From the NCBI GenBank assembly GCA_965277805.1, contig OZ255842.1:2264894-2328893 (forward strand): 64,000 bases of DNA, given 5' to 3'. Below the pieces are notes generated by a model, which was given only the letters and a program-made list of their open reading frames with translations, had not been told where the DNA came from and ran no database searches. This document shows, one piece after another, positions 5,938 through 33,572 of this stretch (positions are counted from its first letter, which is position 1; each line of letters begins with the position of its first letter). The position numbers and the translations under genes are program-made. Source of the DNA: Candidatus Lustribacter sp. (GTDB lineage Bacteria; Vulcanimicrobiota; Vulcanimicrobiia; Vulcanimicrobiales; Vulcanimicrobiaceae).

Positions 5938-5952
5938 GTGAGGAAGAGCCCG

Positions 5953-7844: not shown

Positions 7845-7920
7845 TGTTGAGACCGACGTTCGCGGTGCTGGGGTCAGATTACTTGACTGGCCGGCGCCAA
7901 TGGCCTTAAAATTAAATTCC

Positions 7921-11464: not shown

Positions 11465-12402
11465 GCGGTCAGCGTCTCGCGCGCGAACGACAGATCCCAC
11501 ATCTCGAGCGGATTGAAGCCGTCGAGGCCGGCGTACTGCGCGCGCGCGATCTCGAGCGCGTTCGCCAAGCCCGCGATCGTCGGGAGTGGCGAGCCGCCAA
11601 CCTCAGCGACGAGATGCCCCACGATGCGCGCGATATCATCATCGCCGTTCATGGTGAAGTGTTCGCGCAAATCTGCGAGACACTCCGCGGTCACGAGGTC
11701 GAGCGTCCATCCCGGTTCGCTGCTTACGCGATGGTTGGCATCGTGCATCGCGTGCGCGAGCGCGCGAATCGCTTGCGGTGCTCGTGTTACCAAGGCTTCT
11801 GTCGTGGTCGGAATGACGTGGCCCCCTTCGAATGGGAACGGCGGCGTGGGAATCTGGTGCAGTCCGGCCGCGAGCGCGGCATCGGCGTAGGCCGGCGACA
11901 TAAAACAGGCATCACAGCGGCCATCGGCTACGGCTTTCCAAACGCCCCAACGACCGAGTTCCTTCTCCTCGACGACGACCTGTTCGATCTCGTGGAGCAG
12001 ACCGAGATGGCCGAAGGCGACCGTGGGCAGCGAACGTTGCGGGCCGTGATCGCGCACGGCGATGCGCTTTCCGCGCAGATCGTTCATCGACTCAATCGAT
12101 CCGCGCACGAGCAGCCATTCGGTCCACACGTGCGCAGCCGAAGCGACCGTGACAAACGGTGCGCCGGCTGCCCGCAGGCGTTGCAAGCCCCAGTAGTTCT
12201 CGGCCAGCACATCGACCTCACCGCGGCGGAGCTTTTCACTCCAATCCTCGCTGCCGGCTTGACGATGACGCACGAGTTCGACCTCGAGGCCGTACGGCGC
12301 GGCGCAACGCCGAAGCGCACACAGATAGGGCAACCGGTCGACATCGCGATAGAGCAGCGTCAGCCGCAACTCAGCGGGCGCGGATGACGACATTCCCACC
12401 AT
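11461..12402 (-). CDS. Leaderless PBP-fold (NMT1/SsuA-like) protein, partner of HyuB-gamma (paralogue of 96-1031)
   Basis: 313 aa with no signal peptide. Its sequence LLYRDVDRLPYL..GKRIAVRDHGPQRS..GRCDA.FM.PAY.DAALAAGL matches 96-1031. Its stop overlaps the HyuB-gamma start. An alternative Met lies at 12393. Confidence 0.75.
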   Translation of the reverse strand: MVGMSSSAPAELRLTLLYRDVDRLPYLCALRRCAAPYGLEVELVRHRQAGSEDWSEKLRRGEVDVLAENYWGLQRLRAAGAPFVTVASAAHVWTEWLLVRGSIESMNDLRGKRIAVRDHGPQRSLPTVAFGHLGLLHEIEQVVVEEKELGRWGVWKAVADGRCDACFMSPAYADAALAAGLHQIPTPPFPFEGGHVIPTTTEALVTRAPQAIRALAHAMHDANHRVSSEPGWTLDLVTAECLADLREHFTMNGDDDIARIVGHLVAEVGGSPLPTIAGLANALEIARAQYAGLDGFNPLEMWDLSFARETLTA

Positions 12403-14482: not shown

Positions 14483-15266
14483 AGTCGTGATCCGGATGGT
14501 TGACGGCGCCGACACGCCAGTAACCACGGGTGACGATGCGCTCCTTATCGAGGCCCGAGCGTTCGACGATCGTTCCGCGCAAACGCCGCATCGCGATCGC
14601 TTCACAGCCCACGTAGACGCGGCCGGCGCCCGCCGGCCACGCGAACTTCTCGAGCTCGGCGAACAGTGCCGAGCCCGGCCCGCTGTCATCGCGCACGACC
14701 CAACGGATGTCGTTGCCGGGTGCGCCCGGCAGCGGCCGCTCCTCATCGGCAGTGAGCATCTCGATGAACGCGGTGACCTTGACGCTCGCCGGTAATACCT
14801 CAAGCAGCGTCTCGAGCGCCGGCAGCGCCGTCTCGTCGACCGCGAACACATACCAGGCGGCGGTTTCGTCGACTTCATAGCCGCGCGCGGGCCCGAGCAA
14901 CACGAGTTCCTGACCCCGTTGCGCCTGCATCGCCCAGGTCGAACCCGGACCGTCTCCGTGCAGTACGAAATCGACCTCGAGGCGTTGCGTTTGCGGATCG
15001 AAACGGCGCGGCGTATACGTGCGCGTGGTCGTCCGCCGCGGACCGTCCGGATCGTACGGCGGCACATTAGTTTGCCCCGGCTCCGGGAAGATCAGCTTCA
15101 AATGCGCGGCGGGACCGGACCACACGAAGCCCGCCAATTCTTGGCCTTCAAACGTAATGCGCCGAACCCGCGGGCTCAGGCGCTGCACGCCCGCAACGCT
15201 GATCCGGCGCGGCGTGCGCGGTTTGCGCTTGCGGGGCGAAGGCGCGGTTGATGTCGTTGTTTCCAA
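14469..15266 (-). CDS. Siderophore-interacting-protein (SIP/ViuB)-family FAD-binding reductase
   Basis: The TTG start at 15266 has AGGAGA 5-6 nt upstream. Motifs are RTYTPRRFD (RxYT FAD motif), VDETALPAL and RGYWRVG. It overlaps the HyuA start by 14 nt. Confidence 0.8.
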   Translation of the reverse strand: METTTSTAPSPRKRKPRTPRRISVAGVQRLSPRVRRITFEGQELAGFVWSGPAAHLKLIFPEPGQTNVPPYDPDGPRRTTTRTYTPRRFDPQTQRLEVDFVLHGDGPGSTWAMQAQRGQELVLLGPARGYEVDETAAWYVFAVDETALPALETLLEVLPASVKVTAFIEMLTADEERPLPGAPGNDIRWVVRDDSGPGSALFAELEKFAWPAGAGRVYVGCEAIAMRRLRGTIVERSGLDKERIVTRGYWRVGAVNHPDHDYAND

Positions 15267-15275
15267 GAAAGTCTC

Positions 15276-17462
15276 CTAAGCCAAGACGAGCCGGATGTCG
15301 TGTAAATCCGGACTTTCCTTGCGGGACACGTCGACCGCATGCAGACGTCCGCAGGCGGGGCACGCGTAGGCACGTCCCTCCATCGCCTCGTTGATCTTCA
15401 AGCCCATGCCGAGCTGATCGGCCGGAATGATCTTCCGTCCTGCGAACTCGCGCCAATTGTCCCGTGCGTGTGCGAGCGTATGCCCGCAGTTGCAGCGCGT
15501 CCAATAGTCGCCGGCCGCATCGCGGTCGACCTGCATGCGATCCCCGAGCGGCGCCACGCGTACGAGGTCGCCGGCCGGCTTCGCATCGAGCGTCTTCTTC
15601 CGCGGCCAAGCCTTGCGCTCGGCATGGATCTTCGCGCGCGATTCATCCGAACGCGCTGTATCGAGCGTTCCGTCGGCGCTCAGCACGCAGCCGTACAGCC
15701 GTTCCGCAGCCGCCGCTGAAATCGCGCCCGCGAGCAGGTCACGCTGCACTTCGGCGACAGGCCGGTCGAGCGGATCGCCCCAACCCGCACCGGTCGGCGG
15801 ATTCGCGCGGACGACGTCGGTGGCATCCAGCAGCATATTCATCGAGCGATCTGCGGGATCAATCCACTCGCCCTTCAGATCGCCGAAATCCGGAACCTGA
15901 CCCGATTTGAGCCGCTCGAGCACGTCGGTGTGCCGAATGAGATCGTGCCCGGTTTCCGAGCCCGGATAGCCGCCGAAGAGACCCAGCGAGTCGGGCGTCT
16001 TCCACTCCTGATTGATGTACTGAAACGTCGCTTGGGCTTTGTGCGGTGCGTAGACGCCAAGCAAGCTCAGGCCGCCGCGATGGCTGCCGGCGCCGCCGCT
16101 GTCCGTCGCCCAGCCGCGCCGCAGATACAAGATCGGGTAGTCGAGTTCGAGCACCTCGGCGTTGCTGATCAGCGTGCGCTCCATGCCGTGGTGACCTTGC
16201 GTCGAGACACCGTCGTGATCGGCATACGCACCGCCGCCCGACGCGATGACGTCGTACGTGCGCCCGCGGTAGCGTTCGCCGTGCTGGTTCATTCCGAAGA
16301 AGGCCAGCGTGCGCGGGCGTCCGCACGGCGCGGCCTGCGCCTCGCCCAGTAACGTGTCCGAGCACGCGACGATCCGCGATACGGCGATGAGCGTCGCGAC
16401 TTCTGATTCCCACACGGCGCCCGCGATGTTGCCGCTGACGGCGGCCGGACGCTTCGCGTTGCAAATACGGCCTTCGGGGCAAATGATCTCGAGCGGACGG
16501 AACAAGCCTTCGTTCCATGGGATGCCGAAGGCGAGCGTCGGCAAGAGCGCCGCCGCAACGCCGGCCTTGAGACCGCCCAGCGTACAGTTGATCGCGCTGC
16601 CGACTTGGGCCGTCGACCCGGAGAAATCCAAGTGCAAACGGTCGCCCTCTTTGCGCAGCGCGACGTGAACCTCGGGAACCTCCCCGCGCTGGGGATCGAA
16701 TTCCATATATCCGGAACCGGTCACGAGACCGTCGGGTAGTTCCATGATCCGGCGCCGAAAGCGCGCTTCGGATGACGAGATCAACCGCGCCATCGCGATC
16801 TGCAGCAGATCGGCGCCGTAACGTCGGACCAGGTTCTGAAGCCCGTCGCGCGCGGCGAGGTTGGAGGCGATCAAGCCGCGCAAATCGAGGCTCATCGTCG
16901 CCGGGTGGCGGCTGTTGTTGGTGATGAAATGCAGCAGATCGTTGCGAACGCGGCCGCCTTCCACGATCTTGATGGGCGGGATCTGCATGCCTTCCTGATA
17001 GCACTCGACGGCCGCTTGCACGAGGCTGCCCTCCGCCATTCCGCCGATGTCCGACATGTGCATGATCGCGCCGGCCCACAACACCAGCCGGCCGTCGATG
17101 TGCAAGGGCGCGAGCATGGCGACGTCGGGTGCGTGCAGCGAGCCCTTCCAAGGGTCGTTGACGATGAACATGTCGCCTTCGTTGATCCCGGGATCGACCG
17201 CGCAGTCTGCGATCACCGCGCGCACCATCTCAGCCATACAGGCGGAGTGGTGCAGCGAGGTGTGCCCCATAGCCGCGACCGATCCGTCGGCGAGATACAA
17301 ACCGACGTTGAAGTCGGACATTTCGGTCACTTGCTTCGAGCCCGAGATCGTCATCAAACGCGCGGCTTGTTCGCTCGTGATGCCGTGCAGCCGATGCCGG
17401 ATGACCTCGAAGGCAACCGGGTCGATGACCTCGTCTTCGCGGACCTTCTCAAATGTCGTCAC
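15276..17462 (-). CDS. HyuB-family large subunit with C-terminal acetone-carboxylase-gamma-like zinc ribbon (paralogue 3)
   Basis: The GTG start at 17462 has AGGAA upstream; the product is 728 aa. The core shows FEVIRHRL..SGSKQVTEMSDFNVGLY..VNDPWKGSLHAPD. The tail (15279-15509) reads WTRCNCGH..DNWREF..YACPACGRLH..DLHDIRL. Confidence 0.9.
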   Translation of the reverse strand: MTTFEKVREDEVIDPVAFEVIRHRLHGITSEQAARLMTISGSKQVTEMSDFNVGLYLADGSVAAMGHTSLHHSACMAEMVRAVIADCAVDPGINEGDMFIVNDPWKGSLHAPDVAMLAPLHIDGRLVLWAGAIMHMSDIGGMAEGSLVQAAVECYQEGMQIPPIKIVEGGRVRNDLLHFITNNSRHPATMSLDLRGLIASNLAARDGLQNLVRRYGADLLQIAMARLISSSEARFRRRIMELPDGLVTGSGYMEFDPQRGEVPEVHVALRKEGDRLHLDFSGSTAQVGSAINCTLGGLKAGVAAALLPTLAFGIPWNEGLFRPLEIICPEGRICNAKRPAAVSGNIAGAVWESEVATLIAVSRIVACSDTLLGEAQAAPCGRPRTLAFFGMNQHGERYRGRTYDVIASGGGAYADHDGVSTQGHHGMERTLISNAEVLELDYPILYLRRGWATDSGGAGSHRGGLSLLGVYAPHKAQATFQYINQEWKTPDSLGLFGGYPGSETGHDLIRHTDVLERLKSGQVPDFGDLKGEWIDPADRSMNMLLDATDVVRANPPTGAGWGDPLDRPVAEVQRDLLAGAISAAAAERLYGCVLSADGTLDTARSDESRAKIHAERKAWPRKKTLDAKPAGDLVRVAPLGDRMQVDRDAAGDYWTRCNCGHTLAHARDNWREFAGRKIIPADQLGMGLKINEAMEGRAYACPACGRLHAVDVSRKESPDLHDIRLVLA

Positions 17463-17476
17463 GTTGGATTCCTATG

Positions 17477-18505
17477 CTAGTGCGAGAACAGCGACGGGGT
17501 CTTGATCGCTTTGTCCAGATATGAGAAATCGATCACGCTGTGATAGTCCCAGGCTGGATTGGAGATGATTTGCTCGTCCTTGAGCACTTGAATGGCATTG
17601 GCAAACGCTTTCGGATCGAGCCTGGCATCGACCGGTGGCGTATTGCCGCGGAACGGTCCGGCGGCATAATACTCATACGCATCGGTGGCTGCGGCGACGC
17701 TGAGCGGACCGCCCTTCGCCAGCAGGTCGATCGCTTGCGCACGATTCTTTGGATCGAGGATGTAGTCACAACCCTTGGCCAGCGCGCCCATGAAGCGCAC
17801 GGCGGTATCAGGATTCGCCTTGAGCCAATTGCGGGTCGACATCACCAAGCCGTTGTTATACAGCTTCTGGCTCGCGCCGAAATGGGTCAGGGTGTGCATG
17901 CCGTTGAAATCGCCGCGATCGACGGGGTCGTTGATGTACGCGGCTGCAGCTTGGCCGCTCACGACCGCCGCGAGCCGGCCGGTGCTGGCACCGCCGATGT
18001 AGAGCGGCTTCCATTTGTCCTTGCCGACGTACCCGTTGATGAGCGCCGTACCGATCGCCTCGTTCGACGTGTTGTGCGCGGGCAGTGCGATCGTCTTCCC
18101 CACCAGCTGAGCGGGCGAGGTTATCGACGGCGGCGAGATTAGCGAAACCGGCGAACCTTCGCTGCTGCCCAACACGACGAGCTGGTCGCTCTGACCGTTC
18201 GCCGCCGGAATGACCGAGGCCGCGCCGGCCGTGACGATGTCGGCTTGCCCGCTGGTCAGTGCGCTGACGATCGCCGGATCGCCGTAAAGCACGACCGAGT
18301 TCCCGATGCGGATCCCGGCCTTCGCGAAATAGTTCCCTTGCTGCGCGCCGTAGATGCACCACGAGCCCAGTGTCGAGCCGTAGGTCGCGATGTTGACGGT
18401 CTTCAAATCGGGAGCTGCGTTCGTCTGCGCGACCGTCGCGGAATCCATGGAACCGAGTAACGTCAACGACACGGCGCCGCACAGCAACATCCGGGCAGTA
18501 ATCAT
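17477..18505 (-). CDS. Secreted NMT1/SsuA-like substrate-binding protein (first gene of the HyuB/HyuA operon)
   Basis: 342 aa with N-terminal signal MITARMLLCGAVSLTLLGSMDSATVAQ and AAGGGG upstream. It has the PBP pattern ..LVGKTIALPAHNTSNEA... Its C-terminus matches the partial gene at 1-81. Confidence 0.8.
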   Translation of the reverse strand: MITARMLLCGAVSLTLLGSMDSATVAQTNAAPDLKTVNIATYGSTLGSWCIYGAQQGNYFAKAGIRIGNSVVLYGDPAIVSALTSGQADIVTAGAASVIPAANGQSDQLVVLGSSEGSPVSLISPPSITSPAQLVGKTIALPAHNTSNEAIGTALINGYVGKDKWKPLYIGGASTGRLAAVVSGQAAAAYINDPVDRGDFNGMHTLTHFGASQKLYNNGLVMSTRNWLKANPDTAVRFMGALAKGCDYILDPKNRAQAIDLLAKGGPLSVAAATDAYEYYAAGPFRGNTPPVDARLDPKAFANAIQVLKDEQIISNPAWDYHSVIDFSYLDKAIKTPSLFSH

Positions 18506-18541
18506 GTCTTCGCCCCTTCACCAGGAGAGTATGCGTTTCCA

Positions 18542-18559
18542 TTAAAACTGAATTTCGTT
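18542..18559 (+). promoter_or_regulatory. Copy R3 of the conserved AT-rich motif (reads TTAAAA-CTGA-ATTTCGTT on the plus strand)
   Basis: The reverse complement AACGAAATTCAGTTTTAA matches all 14 fixed positions of AACGAAAT-N4-TTTTAA seen at 60780 and 60864. It lies in the divergent region between the SBP operon and the RidA gene. Confidence 0.4.
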
Positions 18560-18593
18560 ATTCCTCCGAATTACCGTGACTGGAGAACGCGCG

Positions 18594-18998
18594 ATGTCAA
18601 CTACCAGCGCAAAAACGCTGATTCCCGGACCCGAGGGCAAAACGATCCGCGGCGGCAACTGCTACGGCGTCAAGGCCGGCGGCTTTCTCTTTCTGTCGGC
18701 CGTGCGCGGCACGTTGCCGAACGACGGCGGCGTGCCGTCCGATCTCGAGGAACAAGCGCGTCAGCTCTTCCGCAACATCCAAGACACGCTCAAGCAATCC
18801 GGTGCGACGATGGATCAGGTCGTCAAGATGGCTGTCTACATGATCGATCTTGAAAACGACCGTCCGGTCTTCAACAAGGCCTGGAAAGAGTTTTTCGGCG
18901 ATCAGCCGCCGGCGCGCTTCGCGGTCCAGGTGACGGGCATCGGCAATCCCGGCGACGGCAGCCGTTTCCTCTGTGACGTTACGGCGCTGGCTCCGTAG
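18594..18998 (+). CDS. RidA/YjgF/L-PSP-family enamine/imine deaminase-like protein
   Basis: The ATG at 18594 has GGAG 8 nt upstream. Family-typical sequence includes ..GGFLFLSAVRG.., QARQLFRNIQDTLKQSGATMDQVVKMAVYM and ..PARFAVQV... Confidence 0.85.
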   Translation: MSTTSAKTLIPGPEGKTIRGGNCYGVKAGGFLFLSAVRGTLPNDGGVPSDLEEQARQLFRNIQDTLKQSGATMDQVVKMAVYMIDLENDRPVFNKAWKEFFGDQPPARFAVQVTGIGNPGDGSRFLCDVTALAP

Positions 18999-19010
18999 CA
19001 ACGCGCAGGG

Positions 19011-20105
19011 CTAGAGCGTGAGCTGTGGCGTGACGCCGTGCTTCTTCATCTCCTCGAGCCAGAGCGCGTGGATACGCGGATCCTGATCCGCGTATTCGAT
19101 TTGCCCACCACCGTCGCGCACGCTGGTGGCGAGGGCGCCCTGCCCCTCGGCGTCACCTTGCGAGGAGAGCTGCGAATCAGTTAGCGGGTAGCGCACGTTG
19201 CTGACGCCCGCTGCAATGTAGCGCGAGGGGTAGTTGCTCGTTACGAAGTGCTGGTGGAACTGGCCCTCGATGGGCGGAAAGACGACCCCGGGCTTCCAAT
19301 CGACGCGCGTGAATTCGGTTTCGCCCGCGAACCACAGCAGCGAATACCCCGTACCCGTCACTGTGAAGACGTGCCGGCCGGCGCCGTGCCGGTGCGCTTT
19401 CTTGTACGTTCCCGCTTGGATTTCCGAACAGTGAACGTGCATGTTTCCGTCGGCCAGAATGAAAACGATATTGGACGATCCCGTGCCGCGCTCGTTCCAA
19501 GCGTGCAACTCGATCGACGCCAGATCAGGGATGAAATTCGTTTCCCAGAAATTCCAACCGGGGCGGCCGGTGAAGAGTTCGCCGCCGCCGTCGTAGTCTT
19601 TGTCCTCGCCGATGCGTGCGCGGAAAAAATGCGGGTTGTCGAAGATGAAGGCATCGTCGTGAAAGAGCTTCATCATCAGCGGCAGCGACGTCGTCGAGGC
19701 GATGACGGCCCGGTTCCTGCCGTCGCCGTTGTGCAGCCGGTACGTCGCGTTCAGCGGAATCGCAAACATGCTGTTGTGTTGCCATTCGAAGCTGTGTTTG
19801 CGCCCATTGGGAAACTCCACCTGAGCGCTGCCGCGGCCTGCCACGACGTACATCACCTCTTCGTAGAGATGGCGCTGCGGTTCGGTCGACGCCCCGGGCG
19901 GCAAATCGATCAGGAAAAGATTGCAGAAATCGCCGCGCCCGCGCAAATGCACCGCCGCCGCGTTGGCACCCAAACGCGGCCAGTGTTTGGTTTCCACGTC
20001 CAGCAACTCGCACGAGATGCCTTCGTGAACGATGAGACCCTCGCGCGCCACCCACTCATTGTACGGGTTGATCCCGACCCGCACGCTCTTGCCGTCCGTT
20101 GCCAT
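19011..20105 (-). CDS. Bicupin protein (gentisate 1,2-dioxygenase-like fold)
   Basis: 364 aa with two cupin barrels. Only the C-terminal barrel has a full His cluster (AHRHGAGRHV ... QFHQHF); the N-terminal barrel has PQRH. Its start shares one nt with the HyuA stop (TGATG at 20103-20107). Confidence 0.7.
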   Translation of the reverse strand: MATDGKSVRVGINPYNEWVAREGLIVHEGISCELLDVETKHWPRLGANAAAVHLRGRGDFCNLFLIDLPPGASTEPQRHLYEEVMYVVAGRGSAQVEFPNGRKHSFEWQHNSMFAIPLNATYRLHNGDGRNRAVIASTTSLPLMMKLFHDDAFIFDNPHFFRARIGEDKDYDGGGELFTGRPGWNFWETNFIPDLASIELHAWNERGTGSSNIVFILADGNMHVHCSEIQAGTYKKAHRHGAGRHVFTVTGTGYSLLWFAGETEFTRVDWKPGVVFPPIEGQFHQHFVTSNYPSRYIAAGVSNVRYPLTDSQLSSQGDAEGQGALATSVRDGGGQIEYADQDPRIHALWLEEMKKHGVTPQLTL

Positions 20106-22210
20106 CAGCGTTCGCGGATGATGACGTTGCCGCCGTCATCTCCGAGCGCCGTCTGATTCGGACCGATGACCACGGTGGTGCCGAAGAACTCGAGAATCGC
20201 CGGACCCTCGATCGGCACGCGGGCGGGCACAGCTTCACCGCGATAGATGGCCGTTGCGACCATCTCTTTCTCGAACATCACGTCGCGCGATCCGAGCAGC
20301 GCTTTCTGCAGCGTCGCGCCGGCCTCGCGATTCGAACCGGACGGCGCATGCAGCGATGGGATGCGGCCTTCGACGCGGAACGTGTTGACCTCGATGCCGG
20401 CCTCGGCGAGGCTCGTTCCTTGACCGTAGATCCGTTCGTAGCGCGCATAGAATTCCGGCACCAGGGCATCGAGGTCGCTGCGTTCGAGTATGCCGCCCGG
20501 AACGGGCACGGCAAGCTCGTGTACTTGGCGCCGGAAACGGAAGTACAGCGTGCGCTTGAGCACGAGGTGCGGGCTGTCGTGCATCGCTTCGCGGCAGCGC
20601 TGCTCGAGCGCTTCGAACGTGGCGTTGATGCGCGCCAGGTCGAGGTGCTCGGCGGCGTTGCGCGAGCCCGGCGGCGTGTGCTGCGGATCGCTGCGCTGGA
20701 AACTTCGAAAACGATCCGACGACACGGCTCCGAAACCCGAATGCACCGTTGCCGTGTGCGGCACGACGACGGTCCGGATGCCGGCCTCGCGCGCTATGGC
20801 ATAGCCGTGCGTCGGTCCCGCTCCGCCATAGGCGAACATCACGAAATCGCGCGGGTCGTAGCCCTGTTGAATCGTCACGGCGCGCACGAGGTCGGCCATC
20901 TGGTTTTCGGCCACGGCGCGAATACCTGACGCCGCTTCCAGCAACGAGAGGCCCAGCGGTTCGGCGATGTACTCGCGGATCGCTTGCTCGGCGAGCTCGC
21001 GATAGAGTGGAATGCGCCCGCCGAGAAAATATTTCGGATCGATGATGCCGAGCACGACGTCGGCGTCGGTCACGGTCGGCCGACTTCCGCCCGCGCCGTA
21101 GCACGCGGGTCCCGGCACGGCGCCGGCGCTTTCCGGTCCCACAATCAGCACGCCGTCGTCGTCGACCGAAGCGATGCTCCCGCCGCCTGCACCGATCGCG
21201 GTGATGCGAATGCGCGGCGAGGCGATGTGGTAATTGCCGGTGATGCTTTGCGTCGCGACGAGCGGTTCGCCGTCGACGATGAGCGCGGCATCGAAACTCG
21301 TGCCGCCCATGTCGCCGGTGATGACGTTGGGAAAGCCGAGCTTGCGGGCCAGCGCCGCCGATGCCAGCACGCCGCCGGCCGGACCGGAAACCATCAGCTC
21401 GACCGCCCGCGCTCCGGCCTCCGCCGCTTCGACCACGCCGCCGGCCGAGTCCATGACCGTGAAATCGCCATGAAAACCGTTCGCACGCAGCCGGTTTTCG
21501 AGCAACTCTACGTAGCGCCGAATGATCGGGCCTAGGTATGAGTTGACCACGGTCGTCACCGTGCGCTCGTACTCGCCGATCACCGGTGCGATTTCGCTCG
21601 AGAGCGTGATGAAGACGTCGGGGCACTCTTCGCGGATGATGCGCGCGGCCTGCTGCTCGTGATCGGGCCGCACGAACGCCCAGAGGAAGCAAATCGAGAC
21701 CGCGCCGATGCCTTCGTCGCGAATGCGCTTGGCCGCGGCACGAATCTGATCGGCCTGCAGCGGTACGATCTCATCACCTTCCCAATCGACGCGTTCATCG
21801 ATCTCGATGATGTCTTCGCGCGGCACGATCGGCAGCGGATTGCGGCGCTCGCTGTAGTGGTCGGAGCGATTACCGATTCCGGTCCACGAACCCATCGCCC
21901 GCTGGACGAAGATCGTTTCCCCAAAACCGCGCGTGGTAAGCAACAGCGTACGCTCGCCCTTGCGTTCGATGTAGGCGTTCGTCGCCGCGGTCGTCCCATG
22001 GGCGAAGTAGTCGACGCTGCCCGTAAATTCTTCGAGCGTCATTCCGAACTCGGCCGCCGCCAATTTGAAGCCTTCGATGACCGCGAGGCTGCGGTCTTGC
22101 GGCGTGGTCGGCACCTTGAAGAGGCGCAGCGCGCCGGCACCATCGAGCACCACCATATCGGTGAACGTGCCGCCGATATCGGTCCCGACGGCAAAACGAG
22201 AATCGGTCAT
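20105..22210 (-). CDS. Hydantoinase A/oxoprolinase (HyuA)-family ATPase subunit (paralogue 2, no adjacent HyuB)
   Basis: 701 aa starting MTDSRFAVGTDIGGTFTDMVV. It is about 80% identical by eye to 12371-14482 over the first 140 residues. It forms an ATGA overlap with the upstream LigB-like gene (22207-22210). Confidence 0.9.
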   Translation of the reverse strand: MTDSRFAVGTDIGGTFTDMVVLDGAGALRLFKVPTTPQDRSLAVIEGFKLAAAEFGMTLEEFTGSVDYFAHGTTAATNAYIERKGERTLLLTTRGFGETIFVQRAMGSWTGIGNRSDHYSERRNPLPIVPREDIIEIDERVDWEGDEIVPLQADQIRAAAKRIRDEGIGAVSICFLWAFVRPDHEQQAARIIREECPDVFITLSSEIAPVIGEYERTVTTVVNSYLGPIIRRYVELLENRLRANGFHGDFTVMDSAGGVVEAAEAGARAVELMVSGPAGGVLASAALARKLGFPNVITGDMGGTSFDAALIVDGEPLVATQSITGNYHIASPRIRITAIGAGGGSIASVDDDGVLIVGPESAGAVPGPACYGAGGSRPTVTDADVVLGIIDPKYFLGGRIPLYRELAEQAIREYIAEPLGLSLLEAASGIRAVAENQMADLVRAVTIQQGYDPRDFVMFAYGGAGPTHGYAIAREAGIRTVVVPHTATVHSGFGAVSSDRFRSFQRSDPQHTPPGSRNAAEHLDLARINATFEALEQRCREAMHDSPHLVLKRTLYFRFRRQVHELAVPVPGGILERSDLDALVPEFYARYERIYGQGTSLAEAGIEVNTFRVEGRIPSLHAPSGSNREAGATLQKALLGSRDVMFEKEMVATAIYRGEAVPARVPIEGPAILEFFGTTVVIGPNQTALGDDGGNVIIRER

Positions 22211-23286
22211 CGCACCCCTGCCAAGGCCGGCGGGAACACCGCAAACGCCTTGGTCGAATTGAAGATATAGGATTCGCAGAAGTCGGTGAAGCTTGGCACC
22301 TGACCGATTTCAGTCATCGCCCCGGCTAAGCAAATCCAGTTGAGCATCTCGTGCTGGCCCGAGCCTTCCAAATCGCTGATGCCGAGTTTGCCCCAATTCT
22401 CGATACGATTCGTCTTGAGTTCGTCGTAGTGGATGCGATCCGAGGCGATGTCGGGATAGAGGCGCTGATGCTTCTTGGTCAACGAGCCGTGCGACCAGCT
22501 CGAGCTCGCCACGAGCGCGACCCGGTAGGGGCTTTCTTTGAAGAACCGTGCGGTAATTTGCCCCACTTCGAAACAGCGGCGCGGGCTCGGCGCAGGCGGG
22601 CTCAGTTCGCCCGTGCCTTCGCCGACGAGCGAAGCCGACGTCGTCATCAGCTCGTTGCCGTAGCAGTTGACGTGAAACGGCACCAGTGGAAACGGAAAGC
22701 CTTGCTGGTCGTAGTCGAGATACAAAACCGAATTGGCAAACGAATGCGGCAAGCCGCGCTCGTAGCGCATCTGCATCGAGTAGGCAATGTCGACGCCTTG
22801 GTCGAGCAGATGGCGGGCCAGTTGCGTGCCGGCTTTCTTATGCGAGCGCACCGGGATCGTGTAGTCGGCCGGCAGCCCCCAGGCATTGGTGGCCGTGCGA
22901 AATGCGCCGGTTTCCAAATCGGCCAGCGGCTGACACTTCATGTCGTCGACAAGAAAGATGCAGAACGCAGGGATGCAGTCTTTCTTAAAGTTTTCGTACT
23001 GGTCGTCGCCCCACATGACGATGAAATCCGGCGCGAACGCGTCGAGTTCGGCACGCAAGCGGCGGTAGCCGGCGATCAGTTTCTCGTGGTGCTTGCGCGC
23101 GGCCGTCTGCCCGTCGTCTTGACCCCACTCCGTGCGCATCTCCTCGGGCCAACGGCTGCGGTCGTCAAAGAGGTCGCGCGGAATGCGCCCCCGCTCGACC
23201 TGCGTTTGAAGATGACGCGGCCAAAACTCCGCCGGTACGGCCGGGCCGGGATAGTGACTCAGGCCGAGCCCCAGAATTTCGCCCAT
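22207..23286 (-). CDS. LigB/MhpB-superfamily (class III extradiol dioxygenase subunit B-like) protein
   Basis: 359 aa with AGGAG 7 nt upstream. LGLSHYPG, WGDDQYENFKKDCIPAFCIF and SSSWSHGSL align with recalled MhpB segments LSHSP, APDHYNGFFYDVMPPFCLG and GSGGLSHQP. Confidence 0.75.
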   Translation of the reverse strand: MGEILGLGLSHYPGPAVPAEFWPRHLQTQVERGRIPRDLFDDRSRWPEEMRTEWGQDDGQTAARKHHEKLIAGYRRLRAELDAFAPDFIVMWGDDQYENFKKDCIPAFCIFLVDDMKCQPLADLETGAFRTATNAWGLPADYTIPVRSHKKAGTQLARHLLDQGVDIAYSMQMRYERGLPHSFANSVLYLDYDQQGFPFPLVPFHVNCYGNELMTTSASLVGEGTGELSPPAPSPRRCFEVGQITARFFKESPYRVALVASSSWSHGSLTKKHQRLYPDIASDRIHYDELKTNRIENWGKLGISDLEGSGQHEMLNWICLAGAMTEIGQVPSFTDFCESYIFNSTKAFAVFPPALAGVR

Positions 23287-23306
23287 CGAAGACTCCTACG
23301 CTGAAA

Positions 23307-23324
23307 GACAAAATTTGATTTTAA
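23307..23324 (+). promoter_or_regulatory. Copy R4 (degenerate) of the AACGAAAT-N4-TTTTAA motif
   Basis: GACAAAATTTGATTTTAA matches 12 of the 14 fixed positions. It lies between the candidate -10 box and the SD of the LigB-like gene. Confidence 0.3.
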
Positions 23325-23353
23325 TTGTAGAATCGACGCGGGCGCGGCGTCAA
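23324..23353 (-). promoter_or_regulatory. Candidate sigma70-type promoter of the LigB-like/HyuA/bicupin operon
   Basis: On the minus strand this reads TTGACG (23348-23353), an 18-nt spacer, then TACAAT (23324-23329). It sits about 38 nt upstream of the ATG at 23286, in the 75-bp gap after the IclR stop. Confidence 0.4.
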
Positions 23354-23361
23354 CCTGTCGC

Positions 23362-24159
23362 CTAGGCCGTGCCGAGCTCCTCGCTCACGCGGGCGGCGGC
23401 TTCTTGCAGTGCGCGGCCGATCTCGTTGGCCCGGCTCAATGAAAGATCGGAAGCAAACGCGAGCGCCGTGATGCAGCCGATCGGGTAGCCGTCCGGGTTG
23501 ATGATCGCCGCCGCGCTCGCGCGCATGCCCTCGACCCAGTCGCCGTCGTCGACGGCGTAGCCACGCTTACGAATCGCGGCTAGCTCCGCTATCAGCGCCT
23601 TCGGCTCAACGATGCTCTTGGATGTGCACGGTTCGAGACCGCGCGCAACGTAGCGCTCGACTTCCTTTGGATCGAGGCGCGCCAGGCTCGCACGTCCGGG
23701 TGCAACGCAGTGCGCCGGAATACGTGAGCCCGGGCGCAGCATCAGGATCAGCGGCCGCGTTCCCTCGACGCTGTCGAGGTACACGACGTTGCCGTCTTCG
23801 TAGCGCATCAGCACCATCGTATGTTCGTAGTCGTAAGCGAGACGGCGCAGATATGGTCCGGCGATGCGCCGGATCGGATAGTGCGCCATCGCTCGCGTCG
23901 CGAGCATCGGCAAAAGCGAGCCCAGCCGGTACGTTTCCGAGCCCGGCAGCCGGCTCAGCAAATCTTCTTCTTCCATCGTCTGAATGACGCGATGCGCCGT
24001 CGCCGGCGAGAGGTCCAAGCGATCGCTGATATCTTGAAGCGACAACGTCGGCTCGGCGAGACTGAACAGCTTGAGAATTTCCACCGCGCGCCGAACCGCC
24101 TGCGTGCGCCGATTGAAGCTCGGTTCGCGTACGCTTTTCTTCTTGGAGGGTGCGGCCAT
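23362..24159 (-). CDS. IclR-family transcriptional regulator
   Basis: 265 aa. The N-terminal wHTH reads AVRRAVEILKLFS..LSLQDISDRLDLSPATAHRVIQTMEEEDLL, followed by a C-terminal IclR effector domain pattern. Confidence 0.9.
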   Translation of the reverse strand: MAAPSKKKSVREPSFNRRTQAVRRAVEILKLFSLAEPTLSLQDISDRLDLSPATAHRVIQTMEEEDLLSRLPGSETYRLGSLLPMLATRAMAHYPIRRIAGPYLRRLAYDYEHTMVLMRYEDGNVVYLDSVEGTRPLILMLRPGSRIPAHCVAPGRASLARLDPKEVERYVARGLEPCTSKSIVEPKALIAELAAIRKRGYAVDDGDWVEGMRASAAAIINPDGYPIGCITALAFASDLSLSRANEIGRALQEAAARVSEELGTA

Positions 24160-24281
24160 TGCCGCCGTTCGTTCGCTATGCCGGGACGGGAACCTTGAGA
24201 TTGGAGAAACCCTATTGCGTTTGCACGACGCCCACTTGACGCAAGTTTGCAGCCGATGCTAGATTAAAATCGGCTTTTATA

Positions 24282-25217
24282 ATGAAACGCACCGACTTCG
24301 TCCGCGCTACATTGGCTTCGACCGCGGCCTTCAGTCCGGGCGCGCTGCGGGCGCAAACGATCGAGCACTTTCCGGCTGCCGCAACGGCAACCGAAGGCGA
24401 TGCGATCATCTGGCTCGGTCAGTCGCTCGGCTATTTCGCGCGCGCAGGCATCGCGCTCGATCTCGAAGCCATGAGTTCGGGCGAAGTGGCGGCGGCCGCG
24501 CTCGTCGCCGGCAAGATCGTGCTGTGCAGCATGAATTCGATGTCGCTCGCGGTCGCGCACCAGAACGGCATCGACATCAGGGTCATCGCGTGCGGCGGCC
24601 AATGGGTGCGCGGTCGCAATGGCACGCAGTTGATGGTGCTGAAAGATTCCCCGATCAATTCCGGCAGCGCGCTTAACGGAAAGACGTTCGCGATCAACGT
24701 TCTGCGTGGGTCAGCTCAAATCTCGACCCTGGCATGGATCGACGCTCACGGCGGCGACTCGAGAACGACGCACTGGATCGAGATCCCGTTCGCCGCGATG
24801 CAGGCCGCGCTGGAATCCGGGCGCATCGATGCGGCGCCGATTCCGCAGCCGTTTGCGACCACCGCACTCGCGACGTGCCGTTCGTTGGGTCTGCCGAACG
24901 ATGCCGTGGGCCCTAATTATCTGATCGGCGTGTATACCGCAATGAGCGCGTGGATCGCAGGCCATGCCGATGTCGCGCGCCGGATGCAATCCGCACTCTT
25001 CGCGTGCGCGCATTGGTATAACAACAATCCGGCGGCTTCGGTCGACGCCGTCGCTGCCATCACTAAACAAGAGCCTGTCCAAGTTGCCAACTCGACCCGT
25101 TCGTTCTTCGGCGAACGCCTCGGCCCGGATCTGCTTCAGCCGGTTATCGACGTCGGCGCAAAGTACGGCATCCTCAAAAGGCGGTTCGCCGCATCGGAGA
25201 TCATCGCCCAATTATGA
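24282..25217 (+). CDS. Secreted NMT1/SsuA-like substrate-binding protein
   Basis: 311 aa with signal-like N-terminus MKRTDFVRATLASTAAFSPGALRAQ. It has DSPINSGSALNGKTFAI..WIDAHGGDSRTTHWIEIP. Confidence 0.8.
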   Translation: MKRTDFVRATLASTAAFSPGALRAQTIEHFPAAATATEGDAIIWLGQSLGYFARAGIALDLEAMSSGEVAAAALVAGKIVLCSMNSMSLAVAHQNGIDIRVIACGGQWVRGRNGTQLMVLKDSPINSGSALNGKTFAINVLRGSAQISTLAWIDAHGGDSRTTHWIEIPFAAMQAALESGRIDAAPIPQPFATTALATCRSLGLPNDAVGPNYLIGVYTAMSAWIAGHADVARRMQSALFACAHWYNNNPAASVDAVAAITKQEPVQVANSTRSFFGERLGPDLLQPVIDVGAKYGILKRRFAASEIIAQL

Positions 25218-26176
25218 TCGGTAACGGCTGCATCGACGTCCATGCCCACGCGTTCAGCTCCGAGTATGTCCAACTGCTCGAGCAACTCGGTGCCCGGTCC
25301 GAGGTGATGTCGACGACGCGTAACGTCTTCTCGGCCTCACAGCAGGACGATGTTGCGCTCCGGCTCGCCGCGATGGACTGGGGCGGCGTCGAGCGCCAGG
25401 TGCTCTCGATGTCGGCGGCCACGCCGTACTTTGAAGACCTCGCCGCCGCGCAGCGCGCCGCGCGCTTCATCAACGACGAGCACGCCGAACTGTGCCGTCG
25501 CCATCCCGACCGCTTCTCGTTCTTCTGCGTGCTGCCGATGCCGCACGTCGACGCCTCGCTCGAGGAGCTGCGCCGCTGCATCGAGGAACTCGGCGCTGCG
25601 GGCGTCACGTTCACGACGCAGATCGGGGACCGCGCGCTCACGGATCCGGCGTTCACGGAGATCTTCGCCGAGCTCGACAGGCGCAGCGTGGTAACGTTCC
25701 TCCACCCACCCGGCCTTGCATGCGCATCTCCGGTCATTAAAAATAGCGGCCTGAGCTGGTCGCTCGGAGCGCCCATCGAAGATGCGGTCTGCGCGATGCA
25801 GCTGATGAACGCCGATTTCCCGCGCCGCTACCCGCAACTCAAAGTGATCCTGCCGCACCTCGGCGGCTTCATCGCGTTCTTGCGTTATCGCCTCGGACGC
25901 AGCGCCGATAAGACGATACCGTTGCCGGCCGACCAGATGCGCGCGTTTTGGTATGATACCGCCAACGGCGAGCCGGCGGCACTCCGCGCCTCGATCGAGT
26001 GCTATGGCCTCGAGCGGCTCGTTTTCGGCACGGACTATCCGTATTGGACGCCCGGCGCGGGCTACGAGCAGGCCGTGCACTACATCGAGCAAATCGGCCT
26101 GGGGCCCGCGGAGCTGGCCGCAATCCGTTACGGTAACGCGAAAAAGCTCTTCGGGCATGTGCTGGCAAGCAATTGA
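25214..26176 (+). CDS. Amidohydrolase_2-family metal-dependent hydrolase/decarboxylase (ACMSD/LigW-like)
   Basis: It forms an ATGA overlap with the upstream SBP. The CIDVHAHAF metal motif is at the N-terminus and FGTDYPYW lies near the C-terminus. Confidence 0.8.
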   Translation: MIGNGCIDVHAHAFSSEYVQLLEQLGARSEVMSTTRNVFSASQQDDVALRLAAMDWGGVERQVLSMSAATPYFEDLAAAQRAARFINDEHAELCRRHPDRFSFFCVLPMPHVDASLEELRRCIEELGAAGVTFTTQIGDRALTDPAFTEIFAELDRRSVVTFLHPPGLACASPVIKNSGLSWSLGAPIEDAVCAMQLMNADFPRRYPQLKVILPHLGGFIAFLRYRLGRSADKTIPLPADQMRAFWYDTANGEPAALRASIECYGLERLVFGTDYPYWTPGAGYEQAVHYIEQIGLGPAELAAIRYGNAKKLFGHVLASN

Positions 26177-26201
26177 GAGCCCTCGAAGCAGTGTTGTCGT
26201 C

Positions 26202-27086
26202 GTGAGCCGCCGGTTCGACGTCCCGTTTCCGCCGGACCCCAATCCCCGCAAGCCACGATTTCGCGTTCCGCCGGGCAGTTGGGACACACATTTCCACCTC
26301 TACGGGCCGCCCGACCGGTTTCCATATGCAGAGAACCGCGTGCGCACGCCGCCGGCGGCGCCGATCGAGCACTGGTGGAGCATGAGCGCCGCAATTGGAA
26401 TCTCCCGCGGAGTGACGGTCACGCCGGGCATTCATGGCTCGAACAACGACGCAACGCTCGACGCGATCGAGCGCTCGGACGGCCGCCTCGTCGGCATGAT
26501 CCGTGCCGATAGCGCACTCACCGCGCAAGATATTGCCCGGCTTCATAAGCGCGGCATCCGAGGCATGCGTTTTGCATTCGCCACGCACCGCACGAACTCG
26601 TTCGACGAAGCGCAGCTGCGCTTGAATCTCGCTCATATCGAGCCCTCGAGTTGGGTCGTCGCGTTCTTACTCGATGGCGGTGCGCTGGAACGCCATGCCG
26701 ACACGATCGCGAGCGTACCGCTGCCGGTCGTCATCGATGGATTCGCGGGCATTTTGCCCCGGCTCGGCGTCGACCAACCGATCCTACGGACGCTGCTCGA
26801 TCTGTTACGGCGTCCGAACGTTCATCTGAAGATCATGTGCCCCGACCGGGAGCTGCATGCCGGCGAGCGGTATGAAGATGTCGTCGCGCTCGTGCGAACG
26901 ATCGTGGCGAGCGCGCCGGACCGGATCATGTGGGGATCCGATTGGCCGCATTCGTATCTCTTCGAAGCCGGCAAGATTCCGAACGACGGTGATCTGCTGA
27001 GCATGCTGGCGGACTTTGCCCCCGACGAATCCGTACGCCGGAAGATCCTCGTCGACAATCCAACGCGGCTGTTCGACATCGGTTAG
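26202..27086 (+). CDS. Amidohydrolase_2-family hydrolase (2-pyrone-4,6-dicarboxylate hydrolase LigI-like)
   Basis: I chose the GTG at 26202 because the long ORF from 25953 overlaps the previous gene. Motifs are WDTHFHLYGP, HLKIM and WGSDWPH. Confidence 0.75.
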   Translation: MSRRFDVPFPPDPNPRKPRFRVPPGSWDTHFHLYGPPDRFPYAENRVRTPPAAPIEHWWSMSAAIGISRGVTVTPGIHGSNNDATLDAIERSDGRLVGMIRADSALTAQDIARLHKRGIRGMRFAFATHRTNSFDEAQLRLNLAHIEPSSWVVAFLLDGGALERHADTIASVPLPVVIDGFAGILPRLGVDQPILRTLLDLLRRPNVHLKIMCPDRELHAGERYEDVVALVRTIVASAPDRIMWGSDWPHSYLFEAGKIPNDGDLLSMLADFAPDESVRRKILVDNPTRLFDIG

Positions 27087-27112: not shown

Positions 27113-28057
27113 ATGCGTAGAGCTCGCTTTGCGGCCGCGGTCGCTGCAACAACACTTATGCCGGTGCCCGCGTTCGCACAGTCGCTTTCGCTGCCCGCCG
27201 TGCGGATTGCGACCGTCCCAATCGACAGTGGCATGCAGGTCCGCTACGCACAAGACCTTGGCTCATTCGCAAAGGCGGGGCTGAGCGTCGAGGTTCAAGC
27301 GATCACGAACGGCTCGCAGATCACGGCGGCGGTCATCGCGGGTACCATCGACATCGGCTTTTCGAACCTGCTCTCGGTGATCCAGGCATACGAGCGCGGC
27401 ATTCCGATCGTCGCCCTCTTTCCAGCCGGACTTTATAGTTCAGAACGGCCCAACGGCGGTCTGGTCGTTGCCAAAGACTCGACAATCGCATCGGCCAAGG
27501 ACTTGAACGGCAAGACGATCGGGATTTCCACGCTCGGCAATATGACGCAGCTCGCCCCTATGGCCTGGATCGATCAGCACGGCGGCGATTACAAAAGCGT
27601 GCGCTGGATTGAAATTCCGGCATTTCCGGCGCTGCAAGCCGCGGTCGAACAACACCGGATCGATGCCGCGTTCTTAAGCGATCCCATCTTCACGGCGGCC
27701 AAACAAACGGATCGGCTCCTTGCGAACGCGCTCGACGCGATCGGACCGCGCTTCGTGACCGGAACCTGGTTCTCCACGAAGCAGTGGGCCGAGCAGCACC
27801 CTGACCTCGTTGCGCGATTCATTGCCGCGATGAAGGAGGCGTCGCATTGGGCGAATACCCATCCGCGAGACGCCGTGCCGCTGATCGCCAAATACACGAA
27901 CGTACCGCTCGACGTCGTATCCAGCGAGCCGGTGACGGTTCTCGGCGAAGGGCTGATTTCGAGTGATTACAAGCCACTACTCGATGCCGCATCAAAATAT
28001 GGTCTCGTGCCGAGACCGATCTCCGTTGGGGAACTCATCGTTCGCCCGCCTCGTTAG
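27113..28057 (+). CDS. Secreted NMT1/SsuA-like substrate-binding protein
   Basis: 314 aa with signal MRRARFAAAVAATTLMPVPAFAQS. It has DSTIASAKDLNGKTIGI..WIDQHGGDYKSVRWIEIP. Confidence 0.8.
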   Translation: MRRARFAAAVAATTLMPVPAFAQSLSLPAVRIATVPIDSGMQVRYAQDLGSFAKAGLSVEVQAITNGSQITAAVIAGTIDIGFSNLLSVIQAYERGIPIVALFPAGLYSSERPNGGLVVAKDSTIASAKDLNGKTIGISTLGNMTQLAPMAWIDQHGGDYKSVRWIEIPAFPALQAAVEQHRIDAAFLSDPIFTAAKQTDRLLANALDAIGPRFVTGTWFSTKQWAEQHPDLVARFIAAMKEASHWANTHPRDAVPLIAKYTNVPLDVVSSEPVTVLGEGLISSDYKPLLDAASKYGLVPRPISVGELIVRPPR

Positions 28058-32828: not shown

Positions 32829-33572
32829 TTAGAGGTGCTCCGCGATCCGGCACTTCCACGACTCCCACGGACGGTCGACGAAACGATCGGAATGCGCGCC
32901 CATGCGTTGCAGCTCGAAGGCGTTGAGGTAGTTCGGGCTTGGTCCCAGCTTGAGCGCATCGAGCACCAGACGTGCGTTGACTTCGGTGTAAATCGCGCGA
33001 AAGACCAGTTGCGGAAGATTGGCGGCGACGACCGTCTCGCCGTGCCCGCGCATCAGCACTACCGGTCCGTCGCCAAGCACCCGGGCGACGGCCGCGCCCA
33101 AAGCGTTGCTTTGGATCAACATGCCGTTGTCTTCGCCTGCCGTTGCGCGGATTTCGAACACCGGCACGGGGCCGCGCAAGAAGCCGGCCTGATGGCAGAT
33201 CGCGCGCAACGGCACATCGCTGACACCGAACGGGATTACGCCGGGCGAGTGCGTGTGCACGACGCACTGCACGTCGGGCCGCGCGCGGTAGATCTCGCCG
33301 TGGATAAAGCGCTCGCCGTAAAGCCGTTGGCCGTCGGGCAGCTGTTCGAGGAGCTCGCTGTTCTCATGGAGTTCGCACACGTCGGCGGCGCTAACCAAGT
33401 CGGGAGCGCGCGAGACCGAGATGAAGAAATGCTTTGGGTTCGCCGCCGAACGCACGCTGACGTGACCGTAGCCGTCGAGCACGTCCTGATCGGCCAGGAT
33501 GCGATTCGCGACCACGAGATCGGCGATGCGGTCCGCATCTTCGGCCGTCACGGCGGCACGGTTAGAGAGCAT
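32829..33572 (-). CDS. Class II aldolase/adducin-domain protein
   Basis: 247 aa with GYGHVSVR, VVHTHSP and LMRGHGETVV, the Aldolase_II hallmarks. Confidence 0.85.
   Translation of the reverse strand: MLSNRAAVTAEDADRIADLVVANRILADQDVLDGYGHVSVRSAANPKHFFISVSRAPDLVSAADVCELHENSELLEQLPDGQRLYGERFIHGEIYRARPDVQCVVHTHSPGVIPFGVSDVPLRAICHQAGFLRGPVPVFEIRATAGEDNGMLIQSNALGAAVARVLGDGPVVLMRGHGETVVAANLPQLVFRAIYTEVNARLVLDALKLGPSPNYLNAFELQRMGAHSDRFVDRPWESWKCRIAEHL

Follow-up and report, generated by a model that had tools for sequence, protein, structure and literature searches.

A coupled LigB-fold/HyuA/bicupin gene unit in a catabolic island of Candidatus Lustribacter sp.

Gene structure of the LigB-like/HyuA2/bicupin unit

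We analyzed a 64,000-nucleotide (nt) stretch of contig OZ255842.1 from Candidatus Lustribacter sp. (the window, whose positions are used throughout) and characterized a tri-cistron on its minus strand, which consists of the genes of a LigB-like protein (g1), a hydantoinase A-type subunit (g2, hereafter HyuA2) and a bicupin (g3); L-numbers denote the related loci with which it was compared. The g1/g2 junction reads GCGATGACC, with a 4-nt overlap (ATGA), and the g2/g3 junction reads CGCTGATGGC, with a 1-nt overlap (TGATG). AGGAG is located 8 nt ahead of the g1 ATG. In the spacer between g1 and an upstream IclR-family gene, we detected a sigma-70-like site that, as a consensus match alone, agrees at 10/12 positions and is the top-scoring site in the 10.5 kb from 14000 to 24500. 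The IclR protein is BhcR/PcaR-like by NCBIfam-type profiles, with scores under the cut-offs. The open reading frames and junction letters confirm the first-pass annotation, an earlier reading of this DNA, which had described a fusion of three genes through overlaps (ATGA and TGATG), downstream of an IclR gene and a good sigma-70-like promoter. These observations support one coupled unit of g1, g2 and g3 beneath the IclR gene and the promoter-like site, and we infer that the three genes are co-transcribed. Overlaps of -4 or -1 nt were found in 9 of the 35 same-strand neighbor pairs of the window; the overlaps of the tri-cistron are therefore ordinary for this genome, and we rejected them as a sign of a special complex.

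HyuA2 and the HyuB-gamma proteins

Three Pfam domains, all above their cut-offs and with near-complete coverage, were detected in HyuA2 (Hydant_A_N, 150.7 bits; Hydantoinase_A, 293.4 bits; Hydant_A_C, 59.7 bits), together with an N-terminal DIGGTFTD motif. These domains bear out the earlier description of the middle gene as a full-length HyuA ATPase subunit, for which ATP hydrolysis is predicted. HyuA2 scored 393 bits against caprolactamase alpha (6yra_A), 390 bits against the acetophenone carboxylase (Apc) subunit ApcC (5l9w_B) and 375 bits against N-methylhydantoinase, and it missed every NCBIfam equivalog cut-off. The family scores obtained at this locus all fell short (score/cut-off: CapA, 545.6/1000; CapB, 206/1000; ApcC, 392.5/1500; ApcA, 223/1250; ApcD, 170.6/1500). 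For both HyuA2 and its paralog in the window, HyuA1, the ApcC score was higher than the ApcA score.

As the first-pass annotation had counted, the window carries three HyuB-gamma genes (1033-3222, 9260-11500 and 15276-17462) for two HyuA genes. The HyuB-gamma proteins match hydantoinase, caprolactamase and Apc beta subunits, and their top sequence matches are the hydantoinase and caprolactamase beta subunits, ahead of the carboxylases. Each of them carries a C-terminal Acetone_carb_G domain with a CxC...CPxC motif, like acetone carboxylase (Acx) gamma; in the protein encoded at 15276-17462, the cysteines are C657, C659, C701 and C704, and residues 632-723 match Acx gamma (5m45_C, E 4e-6). HyuA2 and HyuA1 share 81% identity, whereas the three HyuB-gamma proteins share 58-66% among themselves, a pattern consistent with one generic ATPase module that serves several specificity subunits, which have diverged. 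HyuA2 orthologs in relatives were 80-96% identical. The two paralogs formed separate ortholog groups, with 87-88% identity for the HyuA2 type across L001 and L087, 87% for the HyuA1 type across L087 and L091, and 79-81% between the groups; the HyuA of L092 was 77-78% identical to both and had a HyuB-gamma gene directly after it.

In the first-pass annotation, HyuA2 was called an orphan with no HyuB next to it. This statement stands for the immediate neighbors: the hydA-hydB adjacency found in L092, L094, L107, L097 and L099 is absent at HyuA2, which has the LigB-like and bicupin genes at its sides. It does not stand beyond them, however, because the nearest HyuB-gamma gene (15276-17462) lies on the same strand 2.6 kb downstream, separated from HyuA2 by the bicupin gene, a convergent RidA gene and a binding-protein gene. 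A beta-gamma gene was likewise found on the same strand, within 1.6-3.5 kb downstream of the HyuA2-type gene, in the window and in five other lineages (L100, L090, L001, L086 and L093), and orthologs of the 15276-17462 protein (71-95% identity) were encoded near g1- or HyuA2-type genes in L001, L086, L090, L093, L100 and L104/105. In more distant relatives, a HyuB-gamma gene directly follows the HyuA gene in L092 (77%), on a Niveispirillum plasmid (52%), in Phytohabitans (68%) and on two Rhodococcus plasmids; a Mycobacterium plasmid has the pair in reverse order, with HyuB-gamma directly ahead of HyuA. We accordingly rejected a truly orphan HyuA, given the HyuB-gamma genes on the same strand and in relatives. 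The 81% paralogy, the separate ortholog groups and the adjacency in L092 and in the other relatives lead to the same conclusion.

Conservation of the triad and of its link to Hyu genes

Conservation of the triad in other genomes had been proposed as a check, and the exact order IclR-g1-g2-g3 was found in L100-102 (96-98% identity) and in L087, L088 and L090 (80-87%). IclR-g1-HyuA2 with the 4-nt overlap was also observed in L001, L086 and L103 (81-85%); these loci either lack a g3 ortholog or have it at another place, and they differ in where the hydrolase, RidA and HyuB-gamma genes lie. In L001, L086, L090, L100 and L103, the gene immediately upstream of the g1 ortholog encodes an IclR ortholog (83-96%). 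In six lineages (81-98% identity), g1 and HyuA2 have stayed together with the 4-nt overlap amid shuffled surroundings. A metagenome scan with HyuA2 as the query returned only four loci.

At 68% g1 identity (L104/L105), we found an operon of g1, a cytoplasmic NMT1-fold protein (NMT96-like), a binding protein and HyuB-gamma, with no HyuA in view. The linkage of g1 to HyuB-gamma without HyuA suggests that g1 tracks the whole system (alpha, beta-gamma and NMT96-like) and not HyuA alone. No Hyu genes were found near g1 at the 67% and 58% homologs. We further examined the best 80 of at least 592 g1 loci in GTDB, all from metagenome-assembled genomes (MAGs) and at most 57% identical, with flanks of up to 10 kb per side where the contig allowed, and none of the 80 had HyuA or HyuB-gamma near g1. 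These loci belonged mostly to Stellaceae, Dehalococcoidia and other uncultured groups, and the closest matches among those listed (57% identity) were Stellaceae and other alphaproteobacterial MAGs. Distant g1 loci contained Rieske LigXa-type oxygenases (18 loci), hydrolases and sometimes a 30-36% identical bicupin paralog. We therefore rejected a LigB-HyuA link as a general trait of the g1 family; the link between g1 and Hyu genes is real, has outlasted rearrangement over the range of 68-98% identity and is confined to one subclade.

LigB-type genes of other kinds were also observed in or beside HyuA-HyuB-gamma operons, canonical ones in L092 and Niveispirillum and, when all LigB-type genes are counted, in L103 as well, which suggests a recurrent functional combination. 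In the literature, we found no description of a hydantoinase combined with LigB, extradiol, cupin or meta-cleavage functions, consistent with the earlier remark that the arrangement is absent from described aromatic pathways.

A glutamine at a metal-ligand position of the LigB-fold protein

The product of g1 matched the Pfam LigB family (PF02900) at 37.3 bits (cut-off 26.3). Its AlphaFold model had a mean predicted local distance difference test (pLDDT) value of 86 and a predicted template-modeling score (pTM) of 0.90, and a Foldseek search with this model returned LigB first (1bou_B, E 7e-17, TM 0.63/0.75), followed by DesB, MhpB and aminophenol dioxygenases. When the family profile was compared with LigB, the family invariants H11, H266 and E313 corresponded to LigB His12, the catalytic His195 and Glu242, respectively; the invariant SSWSH266 motif of g1 aligned with MSH195 of LigB, so the catalytic histidine has an equivalent. 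The position of LigB His61 is occupied by Gln96, which is invariant in 24/24 family members within the motif GDDQ[YF]EN. Consequently, the Fe(II) triad His12/His61/Glu242 (LigB numbering) is incomplete in g1, since H11 and E313 are kept and His61 is replaced.

The g1 protein thus has the fold and the His12, His195 and Glu242 equivalents in common with LigB and the class III extradiol dioxygenases (LigAB, DesB, MhpB and AmnAB). It differs from LigB in the glutamine substituted for the second metal-binding histidine, in insertions of ~60 amino acids (aa) and in length (359 aa vs ~300), and from LigAB in that an alpha subunit gene is absent. Its sequence similarity to the LigB subfamilies is very low, as seen from the Pfam score of 37 bits and the missed NCBIfam subfamily cut-offs.

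More than 3,800 matches to the g1 family were obtained, and in the collection of species-representative genomes, at least 592 stretches matched it. Homologs of ~40% identity on Rhodococcus, Sphingobium and Streptomyces plasmids retain the GDDQ motif and are annotated as extradiol dioxygenases; they lie in aromatic catabolic clusters, alongside Rieske oxygenases and alpha/beta hydrolases in Sphingobium and Rhodococcus. Other Gln-variant LigB-fold proteins are encoded at L092 5766-6746 (minus strand), L103 11188-12198 (minus strand) and 8001-9089 in L095 and L096, with the motif GDDQ[YF]EN or, in two other paralogs, D-Q. No characterized LigB-fold member of the GDDQ subfamily was found. This Gln-variant subfamily is widespread (at least 592 genomes). 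Identification of the pathway substrate would also test whether a 1-His/1-Gln/1-Glu site supports extradiol chemistry.

The bicupin

Only weak cupin hits were obtained for g3 in Pfam. Its predicted model (pLDDT 86) had a bicupin fold and matched generic bicupins only (E ~1e-16, TM ~0.47), with oxalate decarboxylase and vicilins as the top structural matches. Histidines H223, H225, H238, H240, H284 and H286 were invariant, and H238, H240, H284 and H286, together with the near-invariant H245, lie in the C-terminal cupin. This domain has invariant histidines of the HxH...H type, as in bicupin dioxygenases, which are candidates for a metal site, whereas the N-terminal cupin has Q-x-H in place of H-x-H. 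The match to the 5-aminosalicylate dioxygenase MabB (23.7 bits, cut-off 650) and that to gentisate 1,2-dioxygenase (3bu7; E 0.018, a local match only) were weak, and a g3 homolog of 74% identity adjoins a Rieske oxygenase, with no Hyu genes there. A reading of g3 as a recognizable ring-cleavage dioxygenase is not supported, as it falls far under the family cut-offs and has generic structural neighbors; an oxygenase, a decarboxylase or an isomerase are candidate functions. The first-pass annotation, which had spoken of two ring-cleavage-type proteins, was too strong on this point, because g3 is only a generic bicupin and g1 lacks one canonical metal-binding histidine.

The catabolic island around the tri-cistron

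The features of the window and of one comparison locus are summarized in Table 1. The end of the RidA gene is 12 nt from the g3 stop codon, and RidA orthologs occupy the same relative position in L001, L086, L090, L093 and L100. Orthologs of the binding protein encoded at 17477-18505 precede HyuB-gamma in L090, L100 and L104/105. No terminator-like sites were predicted on the minus strand between g3 and the genes that follow it there. The plus-strand operon at 96-6912 lacks HyuA and corresponds to an operon of Phytohabitans kaempferiae (L107 10001-21652; GCA_042433955.1, contig JBHLUH010000009.1, 330-352 kb), which has HyuA at its start and additionally contains aldolases resembling dihydrodipicolinate synthase and RraA.

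Table 1. Features of the window, with the Niveispirillum comparison operon in the last row
Feature	Position	Strand	Remarks
g1, LigB-fold protein, GDDQ[YF]EN subfamily, 359 aa	22207-23286	minus	Pfam LigB
g2, HyuA2, 701 aa	20105-22210	minus	three full-length hydantoinase-A Pfam domains
g3, bicupin, 364 aa	19011-20105	minus	weak cupin hits and predicted fold
Sigma-70-like site TTGACG-18-TACAAT	23353..23324	minus	in the 75-nt IclR-g1 spacer
IclR-family regulator	23362-24159	minus	HTH_IclR 49.6 bits, IclR_C 100.5 bits
RidA/L-PSP enamine/imine deaminase-like, convergent	18576-18998	plus	Pfam Ribonuc_L-PSP 65 bits
NMT1-type substrate-binding protein, signal-peptide-like N-terminus	17477-18505	minus	Pfam
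HyuB-gamma fusion (beta and 4-Cys gamma domain)	15276-17462	minus	Hydantoinase_B 400 bits, Acetone_carb_G
SIP/FAD_binding_9 reductase-like	14469-15266	minus	profile match
HyuA1, HyuA2 paralog	12371-14482	minus	likely start ATG at 14482
Cytoplasmic NMT1/SsuA-fold protein (NMT96-like)	11461-12402	minus	abuts HyuB-gamma 9260-11500
Second HyuB-gamma fusion	9260-11500	minus	likely start ATG at 11464
HyuA-less operon	96-6912	plus	six genes
NMT96-like, cytoplasmic NMT1-fold	96-1031	plus	first gene of HyuA-less operon
Third HyuB-gamma	1033-3222	plus	HyuA-less operon
Class II aldolase, PhtC-like	3138-3932	plus	83 bits; HyuA-less operon
NMT1-like protein	3850-4935	plus	HyuA-less operon
Phosphoenolpyruvate (PEP)-mutase/isocitrate lyase (ICL)-family lyase	4945-5937	plus	HyuA-less operon
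Binding protein (NMT1-type)	5938-6912	plus	last gene of HyuA-less operon
Niveispirillum cyanobacteriorum TH16 plasmid NZ_CP025613.1 (L094), operon	332-340 kb	one strand	unannotated, tightly packed; cultured bacterium

The whole window is a catabolic island. At least 10 NMT1-type binding-protein genes (e.g. 5938-6912, 6909-7973, 24282-25217, 27113-28057, 31143-32111 and 33562-34884), at least four Amidohydro_2 genes across the 64 kb and two Rieske LigXa_C-type oxygenase genes (7747-9114 and 36653-37927) were observed, along with an alpha/beta hydrolase gene and an aldehyde dehydrogenase gene; no tRNA genes were found in the window. For one Amidohydro_2 protein (25953-27086, plus strand), the equivalog profile of 4-sulfomuconolactone hydrolase, with its cut-off of 500, gave 297 bits, a similarity that hints at possible lactone hydrolysis steps in the island.

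The NMT96-like proteins (304-323 aa, no signal peptide) abut HyuB-gamma genes and are also encoded at L001 15924-16868, L100 18015-18929 and L107 15354-16325. The window copies are 64% identical to each other, and homologs at 50-77% identity lie beside HyuB-gamma or LigB-type genes at ~10 loci, including one in the cultured species Phytohabitans kaempferiae. Their size is near that of the 34-kDa Apc epsilon subunit, and a role as accessory subunit in the Hyu enzyme is possible. Between HyuB-gamma and HyuA1, the window has the SIP/FAD_binding_9 reductase gene, and L100 has the NMT96-like gene (18015-18929) in this slot. L100, which is 95-98% identical, also differs from the window upstream of the IclR gene. 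These differences point to recent rearrangement within one population.

Proposed role of HyuA2 and alternative explanations

On the basis of these results, we propose that HyuA2 is an alpha subunit whose beta-gamma partner is encoded nearby, and that g1 and g3 are co-expressed enzymes of the same, so far undescribed catabolic pathway; we give this explanation as a whole a probability of roughly 0.6. The tri-cistron would be the promoter-proximal part of an IclR-controlled catabolic island, and HyuA2 would pair with at least one of the three nearby beta-gamma fusions, of which 15276-17462 is the nearest and 1033-3222 and 9260-11500 are also candidates. The cytoplasmic NMT1-fold proteins are possibly further accessory components. 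By analogy with the family, ATP would be spent to phosphorylate a carbonyl, giving an enol- or imidate-phosphate that could then undergo carboxylation or cyclic-amide opening. The g1 protein (the Gln96 variant) and g3 would be separate metal enzymes of this pathway rather than substitutes for HyuB, presumably co-transcribed and translationally coupled with HyuA2 for co-expression. In the described enzymes, the protomers are alpha-beta, alpha-beta-gamma or alpha-alpha'-beta-gamma-epsilon, and a beta subunit is always present (PMC5214803).

As for the chemistry, the gamma domain and the coenzyme A (CoA)-ligase, CoA-transferase and short-chain dehydrogenase/reductase (SDR) neighbors in actinobacterial relatives would favor carboxylation, and the closer scores to hydantoinase and caprolactamase beta, together with the recurring RidA, hydrolase and Amidohydro_2 genes, would favor amide hydrolysis.

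With respect to the partner of HyuA2, synteny points in different directions. L001, L086 and L093 favor the 15276-17462 type; L090, L091 and L100 place HyuA1 beside this type, and in L090 and L091 the HyuA1 ortholog comes directly after HyuB-gamma; L103 and Phytohabitans point to the 1033-3222-type operon. The earlier suggestion that HyuA2 may serve the HyuA-less HyuB-gamma at 1033-3222 remains viable; in Phytohabitans, the operon corresponding to that of 1033-3222 has HyuA as its first gene.

Several observations weigh against the proposed explanation. HyuB adjoined HyuA2 in 0/6 of the lineages with the g1-HyuA2 pair, and L103 had no HyuB-gamma gene within its 14.4-kb contig. Because the arrangements conflict, HyuA2 is not assignable to one HyuB-gamma, and the pairing of two HyuA with three HyuB-gamma genes is not assignable from sequence. 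Read-through from g3 into the HyuB-gamma operon is uncertain because the RidA gene is convergent. That the g1-HyuA2 overlap has persisted through several rearrangements could mean that the two are tied functionally by more than co-expression. Moreover, the chemistry is drawn by family analogy only, since no member of this HyuA/HyuB-gamma subfamily or of the g1 and g3 families has been characterized.

We also considered the doubtful alternative that HyuA2 and HyuA1 are the alpha and alpha' subunits of an acetophenone-carboxylase-like complex on HyuB-gamma 15276-17462, in which the ketone would be activated by one HyuA and bicarbonate by the other, and the NMT96-like protein would be the epsilon analogue. 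In the window, L090 and L100, that HyuB-gamma gene has HyuA2 on its upstream side and HyuA1 on its downstream side, the 4-Cys gamma domain is so far known only from carboxylases, and the NMT96-like proteins of 304-314 aa are close to the Apc epsilon subunit of 34 kDa (PMC5214803); in addition, actinobacterial HyuA/HyuB-gamma genes lie beside CoA ligases/transferases and SDRs, in agreement with the steps expected to follow a ketone carboxylase. However, Apc alpha and alpha' are only 30% identical (PMC5214803), compared with 81% for HyuA1 and HyuA2, both of which favor ApcC over ApcA. Furthermore, a single HyuA lies beside HyuB-gamma in L092, Niveispirillum, Phytohabitans and three actinobacterial plasmids, the Apc equivalog cut-off was widely missed (392 vs 1500), and HyuB-gamma matches the beta subunits of hydantoinase and caprolactamase best, not the carboxylases.

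It is improbable, in our view, that HyuA2 is a redundant recent duplicate without a specific role, placed between g1 and g3 as a neutral by-product of a recombination-prone island. Its 81% identity to HyuA1 would be compatible with such an origin, as would the gene order around the pair, which differs in each lineage, even between the window and L100 (95-98%) in one slot and upstream of IclR. Nevertheless, the paralog lineages were kept as separate ortholog groups (87-88% within vs 79-81% between), the g1-HyuA2 junction was preserved in six lineages, and the HyuB-gamma genes outnumber the HyuA genes, so that a second HyuA is not obviously surplus.

The least probable explanation, to which we give very little credence, is that HyuA2 dispenses with HyuB and joins g1 and/or g3 in a new type of ATP-dependent complex, in which it might, for instance, phosphorylate a substrate or product of ring cleavage to drive or gate the LigB-type reaction: although no feature of the locus is more stable than the g1-HyuA2 overlap while HyuB-gamma, bicupin, RidA and hydrolase positions shift, and although HyuB never adjoins HyuA2-type genes in this clade and is missing from the 14 kb of L103, the characterized family members all need a beta subunit (PMC5214803), the 81% identical HyuA1 sits among HyuB-gamma genes, g1 at 68% identity goes with HyuB-gamma without HyuA, the distant relatives checked that have both genes have HyuA and HyuB-gamma adjacent, and the pair-bearing lineages form a narrow clade (81-98%) in which shared ancestry may explain the persistence. 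If true, a HyuB-independent HyuA2/g1 enzyme would explain why the g1-HyuA2 junction survives every rearrangement. The first-pass proposal that HyuA2 works directly with the LigB-like or cupin protein, independently of HyuB, found no support.

Comparison with known systems

Hydantoinase/ketone-carboxylase family members carry out the ATP-driven activation of inert carbonyls, and substrates are known for only a handful of them. HyuA2 has the same three-domain alpha architecture and ATP-binding motif as the described members, which include Hyd (alpha-beta), acetone carboxylase (alpha-beta-gamma), acetophenone carboxylase (alpha-alpha'-beta-gamma-epsilon) and the caprolactamase CapAB, and its partner candidates are HyuB-type beta subunits with a 4-Cys gamma domain. 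Unlike in the described family, beta and gamma are fused in one polypeptide, and a cytoplasmic NMT1-fold gene accompanies beta-gamma. The alpha gene of this clade stands apart from beta-gamma and has its overlap with a LigB-like gene, and only two alpha genes are present alongside the three for beta-gamma.

The tri-cistron alone is an operon fragment and no new type of machine, and its component parts belong to known superfamilies; the subfamily is uncharacterized. Its traits are the beta-gamma fusion, the detached and duplicated alpha genes, the cytoplasmic companion of binding-protein fold and the link to LigB-type proteins, and its carriers are peat and soil metagenomes together with the cultured Phytohabitans and Niveispirillum. 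If the substrate were identified, a further catabolic route would become known, probably one that acts on plant- or lignin-derived or N-heterocyclic compounds.

A parallel in a cultured bacterium is the Niveispirillum plasmid operon (Table 1), in which a Hyu enzyme and a LigB-type enzyme are combined, as in the window. It encodes HyuA (52%), HyuB-gamma (40%), a dienelactone hydrolase, two alpha/beta hydrolases, a canonical LigB and a class II aldolase, with a divergent IclR gene and, after the operon on the same strand, a TonB-dependent receptor gene. It differs from the window in that its HyuA and HyuB-gamma genes adjoin each other, its LigB is of the canonical type (139 bits, with the histidine retained), and neither a bicupin nor an NMT96-like gene is in view. 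This operon offers a tractable model for the combination of Hyu and LigB enzymes.

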